Of a DNA stretch of 64,000 bases, positions 43,358 to 49,353 are shown piece by piece (position 1 is the first letter of the stretch; each line of letters starts with the position of its first letter). The stretch lies in assembly GCA_045594645.1 (NCBI GenBank), contig JAZNYY010000043.1, positions 3,562 to 67,561 of the forward strand, written 5' to 3'. A program made the translations under genes and the position numbers. Under the pieces are notes generated by a model, which saw only the letters and a program-made list of their open reading frames with translations, searched no databases and was not told the origin of the DNA. Source of the DNA: Candidatus Fimenecus sp. (GTDB lineage Bacteria; Bacillota; Clostridia; Oscillospirales; Acutalibacteraceae).

Positions 43358-43553
43358 ACTACTATCTCCTTTAATTAAAATGTATAGGTATAATTATATA
43401 CTTTGCCGAAAGATTGTCAACCATTTAACAATTATTTTACGCAAGTTTGTGAAATTTAAACAAATAAAAATTGCACTACTCCCCTAATAATGTGTCAAAT
43501 TTTAGCGAAAAATGAAGTTTTGTCATGTGTTTCCTGCATTTTATATAAAAACA

Positions 43554-43590
43554 GTTAGTGTGCCTCATTTGTTTAAAGAGGCACACTAAC
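43554..43590 (-). terminator. Intrinsic terminator after the repeat-protein gene
   Basis: A 13-bp stem pairs gttagtgtgcctc with gaggcacactaac. On the minus strand it is followed by TGTTTTTA. Confidence 0.7.
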
Positions 43591-43613
43591 TATACATCGC
43601 AAATAGTAACACC

Positions 43614-44003
43614 CTATTTTGTTTTCTGTAACTTCTTCTTTCTATAATATTCTTTATAGTATTGCTTTCGTTTTTCGTGAATATCAGGGTTTTCTTCATA
43701 ATATCTTTTCTGATATTCTGCCAGTTTTTCTTTGTTTTCAGCTTGATATACCTTTTGATACTCTGCAAGCTCCGCTTTGTGCTCACTGCGGTATTTTTTC
43801 TGATATTCTCTCACCTTTTGAGGTGCTTCGCTATTTTCTGCAAGGTATTTTTTACCTCTCTTTGCGTATTCCTCTTTATGCTCGGCATAATACTTTTGCT
43901 TGTACTTTTTCACTTGCTCACGATGCTCTGAATACCATTTTCTTTGATACTCCCGCCGTTTTTCTTTAAGCTGCAATTCGGTTCCTGCAATTTTCTGTGG
44001 CAC
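43614..44003 (-). CDS. Highly basic tandem-repeat protein (about seven ~15-aa Y-x3-Y-x-E-[HN]-K-E repeats)
   Basis: A GTG start at 44003 lies 8 nt after the RBS GGTGGAG. The ORF-track N-terminal extension (44004-44105) covers the promoter and operators. Repeats include YQRKWYSEHREQ, YKQKYYAEHKEE, YQKKYRSEHKAE, YQKVYQAENKEK and YQKRYYEENPD. Confidence 0.6.
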   Translation of the reverse strand: MPQKIAGTELQLKEKRREYQRKWYSEHREQVKKYKQKYYAEHKEEYAKRGKKYLAENSEAPQKVREYQKKYRSEHKAELAEYQKVYQAENKEKLAEYQKRYYEENPDIHEKRKQYYKEYYRKKKLQKTK

Positions 44004-44037
44004 AATTACCACTCCACCTATAGATACATACAAATTG

Positions 44038-44114
44038 GTAAACAAATTGTTTACTTTGATAATTATAGTAAACAGATTGTTTATTGTCAAGTAGAAAGTA
44101 AACATTTTGTTGTA
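44038..44114. promoter_or_regulatory. Three 17-bp operator repeats with exact 30-bp phasing
   Basis: O1 at 44038-44054 is gtaaacaaattgtttac, a perfect palindrome. O2 at 44068-44084 is gtaaacagattgtttat. O3 at 44098-44114 is gtaaacattttgttgta. Confidence 0.75.
44062..44090 (-). promoter_or_regulatory. Consensus sigma-A promoter for the repeat-protein gene (TTGACA-17-TATAAT)
   Basis: On the minus strand the -35 is at 44090-44085 and the -10 at 44067-44062. The 17-nt spacer is exactly operator O2, and O1 covers the expected +1 region. Confidence 0.7.
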
Positions 44115-44139
44115 TGATTGAAACAGAGGAGGGAGCGTT

Positions 44140-44355
44140 ATGGATTACACAAAAAGACTTTATGATTTAAGAACTGACAACGATTACCGGCAAGAAGACA
44201 TTGCCGAATATCTGCAGATAACCAAGCAAGCATATGGAATGTATGAAAACGGCAAAAGAAATCTTTCAATTGATTATCTTATAAAACTGAGCAAATTTTA
44301 CGGTGTTTCTACTGATTTCATCTTGTGCCTCACTGACAATCCTGAAATAAAATAA
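44140..44355 (+). CDS. Small XRE-family (Cro/CI-type) HTH repressor
   Basis: 71 aa reading LRTDNDYRQEDIAEYLQITKQAYGMYENGKR, with no peptidase or dimerisation extension. The RBS GAGGAGGGAG lies upstream. Confidence 0.85.
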   Translation: MDYTKRLYDLRTDNDYRQEDIAEYLQITKQAYGMYENGKRNLSIDYLIKLSKFYGVSTDFILCLTDNPEIK

Positions 44356-44394
44356 AAAACTGACCTGTGAACACACGCAGGTCAGTTCTCTTTT
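44354..44394. terminator. Bidirectional terminator (XRE / holin convergent)
   Basis: aaaaaa-ctgacctg-N10-caggtcag-ttctctttt. Confidence 0.75.
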
Positions 44395-44402
44395 ATATTG
44401 TA

Positions 44403-44648
44403 TTATTCACTTTTTTTAATCTGCTTAACCACCTGATTACCGTAAACCGCCGTACCTGTTACAAGTACACCCTGCACAACACTTTCAGGTGAAAATCCCA
44501 TAATGGCAACAGCCCCAATTATTCCAAAGCCTAAAAGTATAAGCGGAATATATTTATGGGGAATCTTCTCGGTATTTTTAATTATCATACCAATCACATT
44601 AAGCACGGGAATAAGCAAAAGTGCATTTTCTGTTATATATTCAAGCAT
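44403..44648 (-). CDS. Phage holin (2-TM, Hol118/phage_holin_5-like)
   Basis: 81 aa from MLEYITENALLLIPVLNVIGMIIKNTEKIPHKYIPLILLGFGIIGAV.. to a charged C-terminus KQIKKSE. The RBS is GGAGGAA. Confidence 0.75.
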   Translation of the reverse strand: MLEYITENALLLIPVLNVIGMIIKNTEKIPHKYIPLILLGFGIIGAVAIMGFSPESVVQGVLVTGTAVYGNQVVKQIKKSE

Positions 44649-44662
44649 TTTGTTCCTCCAAA

Positions 44663-44920
44663 TTATGACACGAGAGAACTCACAAGCACACCGCAAAGAG
44701 CCGCTATAAGTGCCACAACAGCCTTATCCCAAAGCCAGCCCGGACGCTTTTTCAAAGTCTCAATGCTCTCTTTGAGTTCCCCCAAGGTAACAAGCATACT
44801 GTCAAGCTTGGTAGTGCTTGTAACCTGTTCAAGTGTCACATCATTCACTTTTTTATAAAGAATTTTCACATCGGCTTCAATGGCATCAACGCGATGATTA
44901 AGAATTTCGTTTTCAGTCAT
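44663..44920 (-). CDS. xhlA: XhlA-family phage lysis accessory protein
   Basis: 85 aa with an N-terminal coiled coil (HRVDAIEADVKILYKKVNDV), RPGWLWDK, and a single C-terminal TM helix, matching the PBSX XhlA architecture. It overlaps the lysin stop by 8 nt. Confidence 0.75.
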   Translation of the reverse strand: MTENEILNHRVDAIEADVKILYKKVNDVTLEQVTSTTKLDSMLVTLGELKESIETLKKRPGWLWDKAVVALIAALCGVLVSSLVS

Positions 44921-45794
44921 TAACTACACCCTTTTTAATATCATCACGATGAACAAACCCCGTTACATATTTGCCGATGGGCTTGCGCTCAACATTTTTG
45001 AGAGAATTTGTAACTCTGTATCTTGCCTCAAAATAAATTCCGTCATAAATATAATAAGTACCGCTGATATAGTTTGAGACCTTGTCGGTATAAGCACTTG
45101 AATAAAGTCTTGCATTTTTAAGCACGACCTTCTGCCCTGCCGCAAAGCCTCTCTTGGGCGGTGTTGCCTCAATCTCAGCACCATAGCCGTTAAGACCGTT
45201 ATATTTCATAATTGCAGGGTAATTTTTGTATGACTCATCAAGGTCAACGCGACCTTCAATGCCGTCCACATTACCCTTTGAGGATTTCTGCCATATTCCG
45301 TAAGGCTTTTGGAATGTTGGTTTATCGCTCCACTGAGCAAGCCAGATATCGTATTTTTCAAAAATCTCGTCGGTGAAATAATTTTCAAGCCAATGCTTGT
45401 TAGCATAAATGCACACGTAGTAGCCATAAGACTCCATTTTTTCACAAAATGCCTTTGCTATTGCCGAAATCTTCTCCTTACCCAGCTCAGCAATTTTGCT
45501 ATATTCCATATCATAAGCAATTGGGTATTCAAACTTTTTACCCTTAAGCTTTGAGTGACAATGCTCTGCCTCTGCAACAGCCTCTTCGGGTGTTAAAGCA
45601 TATGCAAAATGATAGGCACCAACGGCGATACCCACCTTGCGAGCCGCAGGATAATTCGTTCTGAAATACAAATCAAACCCCTTTGTACCATAAGTTGCAC
45701 GAAGCATTGCAAACTGAATTCCCGCATTGCGTACAAGCGACCAGTTAATATCGCCCTGCCAGCGAGATACATCTATTCCTTTATATACAGCCAT
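44913..45794 (-). CDS. GH25 muramidase endolysin with C-terminal SH3b-like wall-binding domain
   Basis: It starts MAVYKGIDVSRWQGDINW, has the D-x-E region IAYDMEYS, and carries a C-terminal SH3b-like segment (GQKVVLKNARLYSSAY..YYIYDG). There is no signal peptide. Confidence 0.9.
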   Translation of the reverse strand: MAVYKGIDVSRWQGDINWSLVRNAGIQFAMLRATYGTKGFDLYFRTNYPAARKVGIAVGAYHFAYALTPEEAVAEAEHCHSKLKGKKFEYPIAYDMEYSKIAELGKEKISAIAKAFCEKMESYGYYVCIYANKHWLENYFTDEIFEKYDIWLAQWSDKPTFQKPYGIWQKSSKGNVDGIEGRVDLDESYKNYPAIMKYNGLNGYGAEIEATPPKRGFAAGQKVVLKNARLYSSAYTDKVSNYISGTYYIYDGIYFEARYRVTNSLKNVERKPIGKYVTGFVHRDDIKKGVVND

Positions 45795-45816
45795 AATATC
45801 AACTCCTTTATTTTTA

Positions 45817-47517
45817 TCAATTCTGTCCATACAATGCAGTGACAATTGTATCCTTGATAACAGTCATTCCGGCTTTATTTGGGTGCGAGCCACTTTGCTC
45901 AACATCATTAGCTTCTAAATAACGAATTGGAATATACAGCAACCCATAATGTTCACAAATGGTTGATATCATATTTTTTATATTGTTGTAACAATTATAT
46001 GCCGACACGCAAACAATTTGAGCATGTGGGTTATATGTCAATAAATAATCAATAAGATAACAATATGCCGGCGCAAACGATTGCAAATCTTCTTCTGTCC
46101 ACTCAGAATATTTAGGCTCACCAATATCAACTGAGGCATTATAATCATTGACTCCGCCGAATATAAAAATCAAATCGGGCTTTATTCCAACGGCATTACC
46201 TTCTCCAAGATGTACTTTTGCACGATTTACAAACGATGTCGCGTCACCCCTCGGTGCATTTGGGCTATTGCAAACACAAGAGCCACTATAGCTCTCATTG
46301 CAAAGCAGTGAAAGTTGCTTTTCTTTGGAAAATTGCCACCACCATGTATCTTTTACGGACTCTACATCATTTGATTTACTTTGAGTTTCACTGTTCCCAT
46401 ACCAAGTCGCATTGTTTTCAGGCAACCAGCCCTCATAAGTTGAAAATGAGTCACCGATTACGGCAAAAGAAGAAATAACCTTTCTGCTTTTTATCTCGGA
46501 TATATTCTCTTTTATCTCGGTGATTTCTTTGTCTTGCAAGTCTGCACGGGGAGTTCTGACTGTGAATTCTCCACCGTAAGAGTTACCCCAATCAAAACCT
46601 GTGAATGTCGCTTCCATTCCCGCACCGGAATTGGCGATTATCTGTCTTAAATATCTCGCTTTTACAACTGCGTTGTCATACTTACATTGCATAACACGAT
46701 TTGTTGTGTCCGTAGTATAGAAAACCAAGCCTACTGTATTGCTCAATTCTCTATTAATTGGAATAGGCTCACCACAATTAAGTGTGCCGTCTTTCAAATA
46801 TGTTATTGTTGGAAATACACCCTCTGCAACTGCTGTATCAAGAGAAATTATCGCATAATAGAATGTGTCATCCTCGATTTGAAATTTTGGTGTAAATGTT
46901 CCAATATAGGTTGGCTCATCAAAAAACAATGCTGTTTTCGCATAAGCCAAGTCATACCGATATTCTTCATTAGACTTATTCTCAAACATAAAAGTTGCAT
47001 CGTAAAACTCGGCAGGCATCTCACCCTTTTCTCCTTGTATTCCTTGCTCTCCTTTATCTCCCTTGTCACCTTTATCCCCCTTGAATGTGCCAAGTCGGAT
47101 TGCTTCAAGCAAGGCATTGATTGAAAAATCATTGACTTTACAAAGTGTATTGTCAGTGTCGGGTGAGTAATCAAAAGTAAGACAAAACTTTCGGGGTTTG
47201 ATTATCTGAATAGTGTTGCCGTCTGCATCAATTGCTACAATATTAAAATAACATTCAGTTCCTTTAAGAGAACTCATTGAAACAGGAATTGCGTATGTGA
47301 TAGTATTATCTGCCGTATTCAGTTCAAGATATTCTGTTCGCACCTTATTGCCCATAAGTGAACGGTATTCAATATAATAACGATAATCGCCCAGATAAGC
47401 CTCGTCAATTTTAAATTTCAACACTGTTGCGTTGTGTTCCCACATTACCCCCGCGTTTTCAACATATTCCGTATTGTTATCGGGGGTTATATCAATAGAA
47501 ATAATTTTATTCTCCAT
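45817..47517 (-). CDS. Phage tail-fibre/baseplate-like protein: N-terminal beta domain + collagen triplets + C-terminal SGNH/GDSL esterase
   Basis: GDKGDKGDKGEQGIQGEKGE supplies the Gly-X-Y repeats. SGNH blocks are present: I AVIGDSFSTYEGW, III FIFGGVNDYN, V GSHPNKAGM. The N-terminus has no hydrophobic leader. The BppU-like assignment of the N-terminal domain is tentative. Confidence 0.7.
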   Translation of the reverse strand: MENKIISIDITPDNNTEYVENAGVMWEHNATVLKFKIDEAYLGDYRYYIEYRSLMGNKVRTEYLELNTADNTITYAIPVSMSSLKGTECYFNIVAIDADGNTIQIIKPRKFCLTFDYSPDTDNTLCKVNDFSINALLEAIRLGTFKGDKGDKGDKGEQGIQGEKGEMPAEFYDATFMFENKSNEEYRYDLAYAKTALFFDEPTYIGTFTPKFQIEDDTFYYAIISLDTAVAEGVFPTITYLKDGTLNCGEPIPINRELSNTVGLVFYTTDTTNRVMQCKYDNAVVKARYLRQIIANSGAGMEATFTGFDWGNSYGGEFTVRTPRADLQDKEITEIKENISEIKSRKVISSFAVIGDSFSTYEGWLPENNATWYGNSETQSKSNDVESVKDTWWWQFSKEKQLSLLCNESYSGSCVCNSPNAPRGDATSFVNRAKVHLGEGNAVGIKPDLIFIFGGVNDYNASVDIGEPKYSEWTEEDLQSFAPAYCYLIDYLLTYNPHAQIVCVSAYNCYNNIKNMISTICEHYGLLYIPIRYLEANDVEQSGSHPNKAGMTVIKDTIVTALYGQN

Positions 47518-47761
47518 ACTTTTCTCCTTTATAATAGGTTTTTAAAAGCGATGCGGTTTGTTTAAGCTCCCGTTTGATTTCGTAGAACTTACGAAGCTCC
47601 CCTTCAAGCTTGATAACCGCATCTGTGTCCCCCGAGTTTTTAGCCTTTTTGATTGAATTTTTGCAGTTGTTGATAAACAAATCCTGCAATTCAGCGTGAG
47701 ACTCATATTCTTTTCCCAAATCAAAAAGAGACATATTTTTAGTTTTTGAATTTTCTGACAT
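47507..47761 (-). CDS. Hypothetical small helical protein (phage-island)
   Basis: 84 aa, predicted all-helical and charged. It overlaps both neighbouring genes, which suggests coupling. No family was recognised. Confidence 0.45.
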   Translation of the reverse strand: MSENSKTKNMSLFDLGKEYESHAELQDLFINNCKNSIKKAKNSGDTDAVIKLEGELRKFYEIKRELKQTASLLKTYYKGEKYGE

Positions 47762-48128
47762 ATTCCAGTAATTCCTCCGTTGATTGTGGAAGCAAAATTT
47801 TATCGTACATCAAAACATATTTCAGTGCCATTTCGAGTTTCTTGCGAATATTTTCAAGATTTCTGTAAATGCTTATGTGCGACACATCATATTTTTTTGC
47901 CAGCTCCCTTAACGGAACTTCATTGTACCAATGTGCCGTTGCAAGATTGCGTTCATATTCCGTGAGTTCATTCTGCATCACACTTTTGACGATTTCAATC
48001 AGTTTTTTCTGTCTGTTGTAAATAAGATATTTTGTTCCGTCTTTGACTTGCCCGCCCGACAAGTCAACATAGTCAGTAAGAAAATCAAATTCCTCAACTG
48101 AAAATTCAGATACCTGAACATTCTGCAT
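47739..48128 (-). CDS. Sigma-70 region-4-like / ArpU-Xpf-type phage late-gene transcription factor
   Basis: 129 aa. LTEYERNLATAHWYNEVPLRELAKKYDVSHISIYRNLENIRKKL resembles a sigma region 4.2 HTH. Confidence 0.6.
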   Translation of the reverse strand: MQNVQVSEFSVEEFDFLTDYVDLSGGQVKDGTKYLIYNRQKKLIEIVKSVMQNELTEYERNLATAHWYNEVPLRELAKKYDVSHISIYRNLENIRKKLEMALKYVLMYDKILLPQSTEELLEYVRKFKN

Positions 48129-48172
48129 AGTATAAATCCGCCCCTTTCAAAAATCTTGTTCATCAAAAAAAT

Positions 48173-48200
48173 AAAACGCAGATGAAAAATCGTGCGTTTT
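48173..48200 (-). promoter_or_regulatory. Leader hairpin + U-tract (possible attenuator) between promoter and sigma-like gene
   Basis: The minus strand reads aaaacgca-cgatttttcatc-tgcgtttt followed by ATTTTTTTG. Confidence 0.45.
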
Positions 48201-48212
48201 CAAATTATTTAT

Positions 48213-48226
48213 CGAACATTTGTTCG
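48213..48226. promoter_or_regulatory. LexA operator (Cheo box) CGAAC-N4-GTTCG
   Basis: The sequence cgaacatttgttcg has perfect arms. It lies 13 nt downstream of the -10 hexamer. Confidence 0.7.
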
Positions 48227-48239
48227 CCTCGCATTTATT

Positions 48240-48268
48240 ATTGTAGCAACATATTTTAATGTTGTCAA
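48240..48268 (-). promoter_or_regulatory. Consensus-like sigma-A promoter of the island operon (TTGACA-17-TACAAT)
   Basis: On the minus strand the -35 is at 48268-48263 and the -10 at 48245-48240. Confidence 0.7.
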
Positions 48269-48405: not shown

Positions 48406-49206
48406 TTATTCAGCGTCTTCGCTCTTTTTTCTTGTCATAACAAGTGCTGCACCTGCTGCAAGAGCTACTGCTGCAACTGCAAATACTGTTGTATCGCCTG
48501 TGTCGGGAATTGTTGAACCTTCACCGTCAGTGCCCCATGGGTCTTCTTCGTCCCAAAGGTTATCTTCCTCTCCGGGGTCTGTGGGGTCACTTGGAGTAGG
48601 GTCATCACTTGGGAAAAGGCTACCGATAATACCGCCAAGGATACCGAGAATTGTATCAAGCAATCCGCCGATATCAAAGCCACCGCCTGCATTACCCTCG
48701 TCTTCTTCGGGAAGCTGACCGTCTTCAATGCTGCCGTCGGGCTTACCAACATAACCGTCAGAGTTAAGGTCTGTTGAAAGAAGCTCTTCAACGCCCCAAA
48801 CAATCTGGTTAACAACATCGCCGCCAACTGTCTTTGCAGCCTCTGGGAATGCTGATGTAAATGTATCCATATCAATTTCATTGTTTGTTACATTACCTGC
48901 AATTTCAGGCACAACAGTAATAACTGCTGTGGGGTTTGTTGCAGCTTCACCGAGAATAACTACATAATATGCAGTCCAACCCTCAACATCTGTGGGGTCA
49001 GCAGGCTTTGAACCATCGGGCTCACTGCTTTCGTCTTCATTAACATCGTCGCCCTCAACAACATCACCTTCGGTAATATCGCCACCAGCTAAAGTATCAT
49101 CAATTACTGTATCGCCACTTCCAACTGTTTCGTCTGCTGCGAAGCCGACAACTGTCATGCTGAGAATCATTGCAAGAGAAAGAACAACTGCAAGAATCTT
49201 TTTCAT
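48406..49206 (-). CDS. Acidic secreted protein with LPXTG-like (IPDTG) cell-wall sorting signal
   Basis: The signal peptide is MKKILAVVLSLAMILSMTVVGFA. The protein is D/E/G-rich. Its C-terminus is IPDTGD, a hydrophobic helix, then RKKSEDAE. Confidence 0.65.
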   Translation of the reverse strand: MKKILAVVLSLAMILSMTVVGFAADETVGSGDTVIDDTLAGGDITEGDVVEGDDVNEDESSEPDGSKPADPTDVEGWTAYYVVILGEAATNPTAVITVVPEIAGNVTNNEIDMDTFTSAFPEAAKTVGGDVVNQIVWGVEELLSTDLNSDGYVGKPDGSIEDGQLPEEDEGNAGGGFDIGGLLDTILGILGGIIGSLFPSDDPTPSDPTDPGEEDNLWDEEDPWGTDGEGSTIPDTGDTTVFAVAAVALAAGAALVMTRKKSEDAE

Positions 49207-49353
49207 AATAATCATTTCCTTTCGTTATAAGTAGAAAAAATTAGAATATTCCACTTCTATTCTCGCCCATTATACAACAATAGCCAAAAAAAGTCAACTG
49301 CGTTTTAAAATTTTTTTGTGTATATTGCAGATAATATACATGGAGGTGAATTT

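Follow-up and report, generated by a model that had tools for sequence, protein, structure and literature searches.

The 64,000-nucleotide stretch of DNA analysed in this study (hereafter the window; contig JAZNYY010000043.1 of Candidatus Fimenecus sp., assembly GCA_045594645.1) carries on its minus strand a gene (positions 45817–47517; protein P0001) that encodes a modular, phage-derived receptor-binding fibre and forms part of a six-gene operon together with lysis genes. In our reading, to which we assign a probability of about one half, this operon would be the attachment-and-release locus of a two-locus, tail-less particle resembling a gene transfer agent (GTA), i.e. an analogue of operon II of FpGTA, with the head and packaging genes located elsewhere in the chromosome.

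The reading frame of the fibre is open throughout and specifies 566 amino acids (aa) from an ATG start codon, which is preceded by a GGAG ribosome-binding site (read from the sequence). From its N terminus the protein comprises (i) a predicted docking domain (residues 1–120, positions 47158–47517) followed by a short helical neck, (ii) a collagen-like linker (residues 147–167, positions 47017–47079), (iii) a middle beta-rich domain (residues 168–345, positions 46483–47016), and (iv) a predicted SGNH carbohydrate-esterase head (residues 346–566, positions 45820–46482), all encoded on the minus strand. The linker, GDKGDKGDKGEQGIQGEKGEM, consists of seven uninterrupted Gly-X-Y triplets (regular-expression count), which implies that the fibre would be trimeric. 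A 566-aa chimera with seven such triplets had been described in the initial annotation, in which the strand was not given, and this description proved to be correct.

The AlphaFold2 model of the fibre (a monomer, built from 48 sequences) was confident at residues 1–118 and approximately 345–566, and poor at residues 146–324. The middle domain, with a predicted local distance difference test score (pLDDT) below 50, has no Pfam match, and its sole relative is protein P0002, with 56% identity spanning both the middle and the SGNH domains. The reading frame is not a chance one, since more than 100 relatives of its N-terminal domain were found at 65–85% identity, with a ratio of nonsynonymous to synonymous substitutions (dN/dS; all values are approximate, because synonymous sites are near saturation) of about 0.04–0.09, a sign of strong purifying selection. 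On the basis of its domain architecture, the protein belongs to a known kind of phage fibre. Because no hydrophobic run in the first 60 residues exceeds three residues and no twin-arginine motif is present there, the fibre lacks a Sec or Tat leader. Holin/lysin-mediated lysis is therefore its obvious exit, in agreement with the initial annotation.

The N-terminal domain was assigned from the AlphaFold2 model (block-mean pLDDT mostly 66–93 over residues 1–120) and Foldseek comparisons as a beta-sandwich of the BppU_N/neck passage structure (NPS) type. It matched BppU-type components in the baseplates of phages TP901-1 (BppU; 4v96), 80alpha (6v8i) and NF5 (9m8o) and, among predicted viral structures, lactococcal NPS proteins and many BppU-domain tail proteins, the top viral match being the NPS protein of phage ASCC191. 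A second model, constructed for a common non-enzymatic allele of the fibre, gave N-domain matches identical to those of the esterase fibre. Residues 1–130 have no sequence match in Pfam or PHROG, including BppU_N and tail PHROGs; the PHROG matches of the whole fibre were rejected as evidence for this domain, as they cover only the collagen tract and the SGNH segment. Thirteen alignment columns of the N-domain are invariant across 42 species. According to the models, it has the fold by which phage fibres dock, as a ring, on a baseplate or on a portal/connector collar. In lactococcal phages, BppU-fold NPS collars attach at the portal/connector, with the first ~130 residues forming the BppU fold; the first ~180 aa of these proteins are conserved, and the remainder falls into seven groups, two of which end in carbohydrate-esterase-like modules (PMC6669499). 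The combination of a BppU-type N terminus, a linker and an esterase head has also been described in receptor-binding proteins (RBPs) of Streptococcus thermophilus phages (PMC7533335).

Analysis of the distal part of the fibre revealed a match to PF16255 (Lipase_GDSL_lke) at residues 350–558 (E 1e-38), with the blocks GDS (355–357), SGS (411–413), GGVND (454–458) and SHPN (544–547); blocks I, III and V had already been recognised in the initial annotation. The nucleophile serine of block I (G355-D356-S357; S357 codon at 46447–46449), the oxyanion-hole residues G412 (SGS) and N457 (GGVND), and H545 (codon at 45883–45885) are all present and are invariant in an alignment with 11 relatives, so the conservation of the catalytic Ser and His is confirmed. 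The pair H545-P546 is likewise invariant. The Asp of the classical DxxH motif is replaced by Ser542, and the relatives have D, E, T, S or A at this position; block V thus appears compatible with a Ser-His dyad. The modelled domain (block-mean pLDDT 74–97 over most of residues 381–566, with a dip to 61 at 531–540) superposes on the SGNH proteins 4m8k and 4nrd with template modelling scores of 0.81–0.85, and it also matched CE2 and CE3 carbohydrate esterases and gp63.1 of phage G7C, a tail fibre that deacetylates O-antigen (Foldseek). The head is therefore a predicted esterase with intact catalytic motifs. Its phage relatives are only 39–47% identical to it. One of them, P0122 (locus L108), is a myophage fibre encoded after Baseplate_J and gp48 genes and before holin and amidase genes, while P0002 has a different N terminus and its gene follows a tail-fibre gene. 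Judging from this gene context, the SGNH half has its nearest relatives among true phage fibres, placed just before holin/lysin genes.

The operon is composed of six tightly packed or overlapping minus-strand genes (from 48128 to 44403), which encode, in order, a 129-aa regulator resembling sigma factor region 4, an 84-aa protein, the fibre, a GH25 lysin, an XhlA-like protein and a Hol44 holin. This layout corresponds to the 3' end of a late operon in a phage of Firmicutes. The fibre gene overlaps the start of the gene for the 310-aa GH25 endolysin (44913–45845; PF01183, E 5e-37; phrog_291, endolysin), which is followed by genes encoding the 85-aa XhlA-like lysis accessory protein (44663–44920; phrog_937 'hemolysin', E 5.5e-6; weakly phrog_689, holin) and, at the end of the operon, the Hol44-family holin (44403–44696; PF16079, E 9e-20; phrog_1129). 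The fibre gene therefore lies directly upstream of the lysis genes, as originally reported. No toxin or immunity family was found among the operon genes (Pfam, PHROG). The GC content of the fibre-lysis island is below that of its flanks.

Transcription would start from a sigma-70 promoter, TTGACA-17-TGcTACAAT (48240–48268, minus strand), with 11 of 12 consensus positions and an extended −10 TG, which is also carried by the related locus L002. Directly downstream of the −10 element lies a LexA (Cheo) box, CGAACAAATGTTCG (48213–48226), the sole exact match in the window, which suggests that the operon would be under LexA control in vivo. The first gene (47739–48128, minus strand) encodes a small helix-turn-helix protein of the sigma-70 region-4/YlxM-like type; together with its relatives it shows weak matches to UPF0122/YlxM, Sigma70_r4, DUF1492 and Mor, and to sigma factor and Q-like PHROGs, and a phmmer comparison with PDB sequences gave only a marginal UPF0122 match (E 0.18). 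Its sequence places it, putatively, among the region-4-like regulators that are able to activate operons led by terS. The protein is only 31–65% identical between species, near relatives included, and forms at least five allele groups across the genus. In comparison with loci L064 and L002 the identity is 37–38%, although NusA is 99% and the lysin 95% identical.

The distribution of the fibre was examined with its N-domain (residues 1–166, E <= 1e-10), which is present as a single copy in the genomes of 89 of 112 Candidatus Fimenecus species and in 52 of 64 high-quality genomes, many of the genomes being incomplete metagenome-assembled genomes (MAGs). No internal stops were detected, and the lengths of the open frames lie between 251 and 864 aa. 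The fibre-carrying MAGs originate from ruminant, chicken, rabbit and human guts. A sample of 301 genomes across the family yielded few matches, most of which involved only the collagen tract, and the best 80 matches of the fibre query against genome contigs were all to Fimenecus-type MAGs.

We compared 40 related loci (20 of clade A and 20 of clade B), plus three MAGs found via the protein database. In the 20 clade-A species (N-domain 58–83% identical) the six-gene operon is present, and it adjoins rimP-nusA in 18 cases, with no rimP/nusA match at the other two; the three additional MAGs carry the clade-A operon and the rimP-nusA context as well. The 20 clade-B species (N-domain 39–46% identical) have a regulator-fibre-lysin-holin operon at a different site, with Rnf, CtsR-McsB-ClpC or oxidoreductase genes on one side and further core genes on the other. 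These conserved clade-B flanks were considered as possible hidden tail genes and rejected, since Pfam identified them as Rnf, CtsR-McsB-ClpC and oxidoreductases. At all 43 loci examined no virion gene was found beside the fibre gene, and the housekeeping flanks leave no room for such genes. The question of whether homologues always belong to complete tail gene clusters, raised in the initial annotation, thus has two answers: relatives of the SGNH half do lie in phage tail modules, but N-domain relatives within the genus never do.

The lysis genes are retained along with the fibre: the GH25 lysin is kept in 42 of 42 species and a holin match was obtained in all but one, while the XhlA-like gene is present in most clade-A and some clade-B species. 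A LexA box (at most one mismatch) lies ~700 nucleotides upstream of the fibre start in 20/20 clade-A species and ~500 nucleotides upstream in 9/20 clade-B species; overall it is kept in 29 of 41 loci, with a degenerate copy at the same place in L002. Values of dN/dS are 0.03–0.08 for the lysin and 0.05–0.14 for the holin. Most Candidatus Fimenecus species have the fibre-lysis operon in their chromosome as a fixed element under selection.

In contrast to this constancy, the parts of the fibre beyond the collagen tract form at least ten unrelated clusters among 43 species, in which the middle and SGNH module of the window fibre is a singleton. Among 42 fibres, Pfam identified an SGNH domain in six (five of them of a different SGNH subfamily), a beta-helix in one and a long collagen in nine (PF01391), with no match in the rest; collagen tracts of 4–29 triplets are present in the fibres of 31 of 42 other species. 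A wider protein search added M14 peptidase and NAGPA heads. Most fibre alleles, having no recognisable enzyme, look like plain binding heads.

DNA comparison with the nearest relative revealed flanks that are 90–93% identical, with similarity lost over three stretches: (i) 45799–47020, corresponding to fibre residues ~166–566, (ii) 47828–48166, which is the regulator gene, and (iii) 43544–44353, which holds a 163-aa gene. In the fibre gene, similarity ends at position 47021, i.e. at the collagen tract, and therefore the head module has been exchanged as a cassette, with one recombination breakpoint at the linker. Head swapping at this point is as expected of a specificity determinant, judging from the aligned sequences.

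The initial annotation also stated that there is no virion to carry the fibre. This holds for the fibre-lysis island, and no virion genes were found anywhere else in the window, but it does not hold for the chromosome. The Pfam models for HK97 capsid and TerL_ATPase gave no match in the genome, but starting from one sub-threshold portal match on contig C17, we identified an operon (C17:3287-8925, locus L110) with genes for TerL, the portal, a 318-aa protein, the major head protein (phrog_3922, PF25209) and three small proteins, followed by an MFS transporter gene. A terS gene of the Terminase_2 type is located at the far end of contig C43 (C43:92366-92855). Synteny in three other genomes (G368, G334 and G327) indicates that C17 continues C43, which places the start of the head operon ~41 kb away from the fibre gene and ~25 kb past the right end of the window. 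In these three genomes the head operon is flanked by housekeeping genes; MFS, MarR-ABC and GlgB genes were identified as its neighbours, with MarR-ABC and MFS transporter genes beside it in the genome studied here. It contains no replication or integration genes. On C17 and in G334 and G327 it is not adjoined by tail genes. Downstream of the connector genes in G368 lie about a dozen open reading frames (ORFs) without a homologue in the genome studied here. The last small protein of the head operon (155 aa) gave no phmmer match among PDB sequences.

The major head protein was detected in 102 of 112 species (59 of 64 high-quality genomes), nearly always in single copy, and its identity drops from 96% to 52% with relatedness. 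In a search for capsid homologues, near-identical sequences dominated and no link to Faecalibacterium appeared among the matches listed. In the clade-B locus L119 (G327:C11:8000-27000), the head and fibre-lysis operons lie on the same strand, only ~8.6 kb apart, with glgB and several further genes between them. An inverted repeat, GTCCCRC-N5-GYGGGAC, is conserved ~18 nucleotides before a TATTTATGGAGAG (TATTTAT) element ahead of terS (L118, L200-L209). The genome studied here has a compensatory variant, TTGTTAC-N9-GTAACAA (C43:92270-92300; arms GTTAC/GTAAC). From its sequence and position, this repeat is a candidate site for a late activator.

The proposed two-locus system would operate as follows. 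DNA damage would remove LexA, and the regulator, the fibre and the lysis genes would be expressed. Capsids produced from the terS-terL-portal-capsid-connector operon 41 kb away may gain a collar of fibre trimers, attached by the N-domain in the way that NPS proteins dock on the connectors of lactococcal phages, and the cell would be lysed by the holin and lysin. On release, the esterase head might bind and deacetylate a surface glycan of recipient cells, with species-specific head swaps setting the target range. It is rather unlikely that the fibre is the sole adhesion and penetration device of such an SOS-induced gene-transfer capsid, in which a collar of enzyme-tipped whiskers on the portal/connector would replace the tail; if this were true, the range of Fimenecus species able to exchange DNA would be decided by cassette swaps at the collagen hinge.

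Several observations weigh against the two-locus particle. Across the genome, Pfam gave no match for tape-measure, Dit, Tal or tail-tube genes, nor did the models Sipho_tail, Prophage_tail, Phage_TTP_1 and PhageMin_Tail match. As no tail gene was found, the classical BppU partner, the Dit ring, is missing, and docking of the fibre on the capsid connector is something that we infer by analogy. Co-occurrence of the loci is not strict: 81 species have both the fibre and the head protein, eight the fibre only, 21 the head only and two neither. The head-only species are mostly the most divergent lineages (capsid identity <=71%) or incomplete MAGs and, given this incompleteness and the strict cut-off applied to the fibre, the table fits joint ancestry but is no proof of it. 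Both loci would be co-regulated in this model, yet no LexA box was found upstream of terS, and the inverted repeat ahead of terS is absent from the fibre loci, so that no control signal common to both loci was detected; nor does this repeat track the regulator alleles cleanly. Finally, the likeness to FpGTA is drawn from gene layout, and the Fimenecus system is described here from its genes.

A somewhat unlikely, though not negligible, alternative is that the fibre acts as a free, soluble trimeric esterase, released when DNA damage causes a fraction of the cells to lyse, which would deacetylate, or simply bind, surface polymers of kin or competitors. Its possible roles include a bacteriocin-like, a receptor-destroying or -masking, or an adhesive one (the last as in PblA/PblB). 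The initial annotation had proposed such an enzyme, and the trimer-type fibre and intact esterase motifs agree with it, as do the missing leader, the lack of detectable virion genes in the island or the window, and the failure of Pfam to identify in the genome tail genes on which a BppU domain would normally dock. The SOS box and lysis genes resemble colicin-type release, and SOS lysis frees any cytoplasmic protein. The M14 peptidase, NAGPA and beta-helix alleles are also surface enzymes, and eight fibre-carrying species gave no capsid match. However, most alleles have no recognisable enzyme, and the operon encodes neither an immunity protein nor a toxin domain. In addition, it is not obvious what the N-domain, which has the fold that docks fibres on virions and is maintained at dN/dS <0.1, would contribute to a free enzyme. 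The conserved capsid operon 41 kb away also speaks for particles, of which the proteins of FpGTA locus II are part (PMC12946183). If the free enzyme were nevertheless the true function, the genus would practise SOS-driven altruistic lysis that releases polymorphic surface-modifying proteins, a novelty among gut anaerobes.

The BppU_N fold normally docks on the Dit rings of siphophages, and the fibre might also be donated in trans to tailed phages with BppU-accepting baseplates, infecting or co-resident, which would be retargeted or, if the fibre served as a decoy or defence, poisoned in their assembly, with SOS-timed lysis cutting their cycle short. We consider this quite improbable. SOS timing would coincide with prophage induction, and L255, the one siphophage examined, has a distant N-domain relative (25% identity) in the RBP position. 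However, a scan of 2.9 million viral contigs of IMG/VR revealed no close N-domain relative, and a tblastn search of 50,697 phage records gave a single match (MT835647.1, 37% identity), so that no matching phage partner is known. The matching record (locus L104), labelled 'Bacteriophage sp.', is an unverified 23-kb sequence that has the regulator-fibre-lysin cassette as well (128, 442 and 293 aa, respectively; the lysin is a GH25 enzyme). Three other ORFs tested in it matched no PHROG family, and several of its ORFs have homologues at 30–45% identity in the genome studied here; it is probably a bacterial contig, not a phage.

Two further explanations are very improbable. A decaying prophage remnant without present function would account for the phage-like gene order and the lowered GC content, but not for a single-copy open frame in 89/112 species, 43/43 loci at fixed sites between housekeeping genes, dN/dS of 0.03–0.14 (fibre, lysin and holin) and a conserved promoter and LexA box. 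O-acetylation blocks muramidases, and de-O-acetylation of the producer's own peptidoglycan from within, which the initial annotation had suggested as priming of the wall for the GH25 lysin, would suit a fibre gene directly upstream of, and overlapping, the lysin gene; it is unlikely because recognisable enzyme heads occur in only seven of 42 species (six SGNH, one beta-helix) while all 42 keep the lysin, and the docking domain and collagen linker are needless for such a role.

The remaining features of the region can be described briefly. The 84-aa helical protein encoded by the second gene (47507–47761, minus strand), which overlaps both neighbouring genes, has no Pfam or PHROG match and occurs only in clade A (52–67% identity). 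Ahead of the first gene, a leader hairpin, AAAACGCA...TGCGTTTT, with a T-run was read from the sequence (48165–48200, minus strand), and a similar hairpin follows the promoter in L002; another hairpin (44358–44387) lies directly downstream of the holin gene. The operon is flanked on one side by an H+-pyrophosphatase gene and on the other by a gene for a small sortase-anchored protein, followed by rimP-nusA-infB-rbfA-truB-ribF. Positions 48406–49215, between the operon promoter and rimP, encode an acidic protein of 269 aa that weakly matches an LPXTG-type anchor; in sister species its homologues are 26–81% identical or absent. Between the holin and H+-pyrophosphatase genes lies the 163-aa gene (43614–44105), with a consensus promoter at 44090–44062. 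The stretch that contains it (43544–44353) is skipped in the DNA alignments to L064, L002 and L071, which indicates a lineage-specific insertion, and locus L067 aligns over this stretch and carries a homologue with 73% identity.

Capsid-mediated transfer of bacterial DNA by GTA-like elements has recently been shown to be common in gut Clostridia (PMC12946183). In this context the locus is a testable candidate for the specificity device of tail-less particles, with a constant dock, a collagen hinge and exchangeable heads, and with expression that DNA damage would turn on along with lysis. Whether the fibre acts on a particle or as a free enzyme, its heads constitute a natural library of glycan-binding and glycan-modifying modules from uncultured gut bacteria.

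Among known systems, FpGTA of Faecalibacterium prausnitzii (Borodovich et al., Nat Commun 2026) offers the closest parallel in gene layout. It forms ~40-nm particles without visible tails, which package ~9 kb of host DNA; its operon I (CP030777, 2536737–2546346) comprises terS, terL, portal, scaffold and capsid genes, and operon II (2672270–2677176), located 125 kb away, those for a baseplate protein, a tail fibre, an RBP, a holin and an endolysin, and the structural proteins of operon II were detected in the particles (PMC12946183). Fimenecus, also a lineage of gut Clostridia, shares with it a locus of a few kb in the chromosome where fibre/RBP, holin and endolysin genes are united and which is unlinked from the head and packaging operon, although the distance is ~41 kb in Fimenecus. 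Unlike FpGTA, the Fimenecus fibre locus has no baseplate gene, and it possesses its own region-4-like regulator, a LexA box, a BppU/NPS-type N-domain and hypervariable heads. The NPS proteins of lactococcal 936/P335 phages and the BppU proteins of TP901-1/Tuc2009 (PMC6669499; PDB 4v96) resemble the fibre in the ~130-aa N-terminal sandwich, the conserved first ~170–180 aa, the trimeric linker and the variable distal carbohydrate-binding or esterase-like modules. Their linker is a coiled coil, whereas that of Fimenecus is collagen, and their genes lie within complete phage genomes near head or tail genes, while the Fimenecus fibre is encoded in an SOS operon devoid of virion genes.

An SGNH head at the distal end of the fibre, a gene directly before lysis genes and an expected role in receptor binding and deacetylation are shared with G7C gp63.1 (PDB 4qnl), the RBPs of the S. 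thermophilus 5093 group (PMC7533335) and P0122. Those fibres belong to complete tail modules (Baseplate_J, gp48 and others), in contrast to that of Fimenecus. PBSX of Bacillus subtilis is an SOS-inducible defective prophage with Xpf and XhlA-XhlB-XlyA. It resembles the Fimenecus locus in the (here predicted) induction by DNA damage, a small sigma-like positive factor, the XhlA-like, holin and lysin genes and its fixation in the chromosome, but it is a contiguous cluster with a contractile tail, is under Xre control instead of having a LexA box, and has no BppU/collagen/esterase fibre. PblA and PblB of the Streptococcus mitis phage SM1 are phage fibre proteins that act outside the virion after lysis (PMC2920869); they are encoded in a complete phage, while the Fimenecus fibre retains a virion-docking domain. 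Colicin-type operons likewise combine a leaderless protein with a co-encoded lysis exit and a LexA operator, but they contain a toxin and immunity pair, of which the Fimenecus operon shows no sign. Among GTA-like systems, FpGTA and RcGTA already provide examples of detached fibre-plus-lysis loci, and the fibre architecture itself is also known. What is new is (i) a genus-wide LexA-box operon with its own regulator, which in this uncultured genus from the gut is paired with a tail-less head operon, and (ii) a BppU/NPS-type fibre with collagen-hinged, interchangeable heads, among them a PF16255 esterase.

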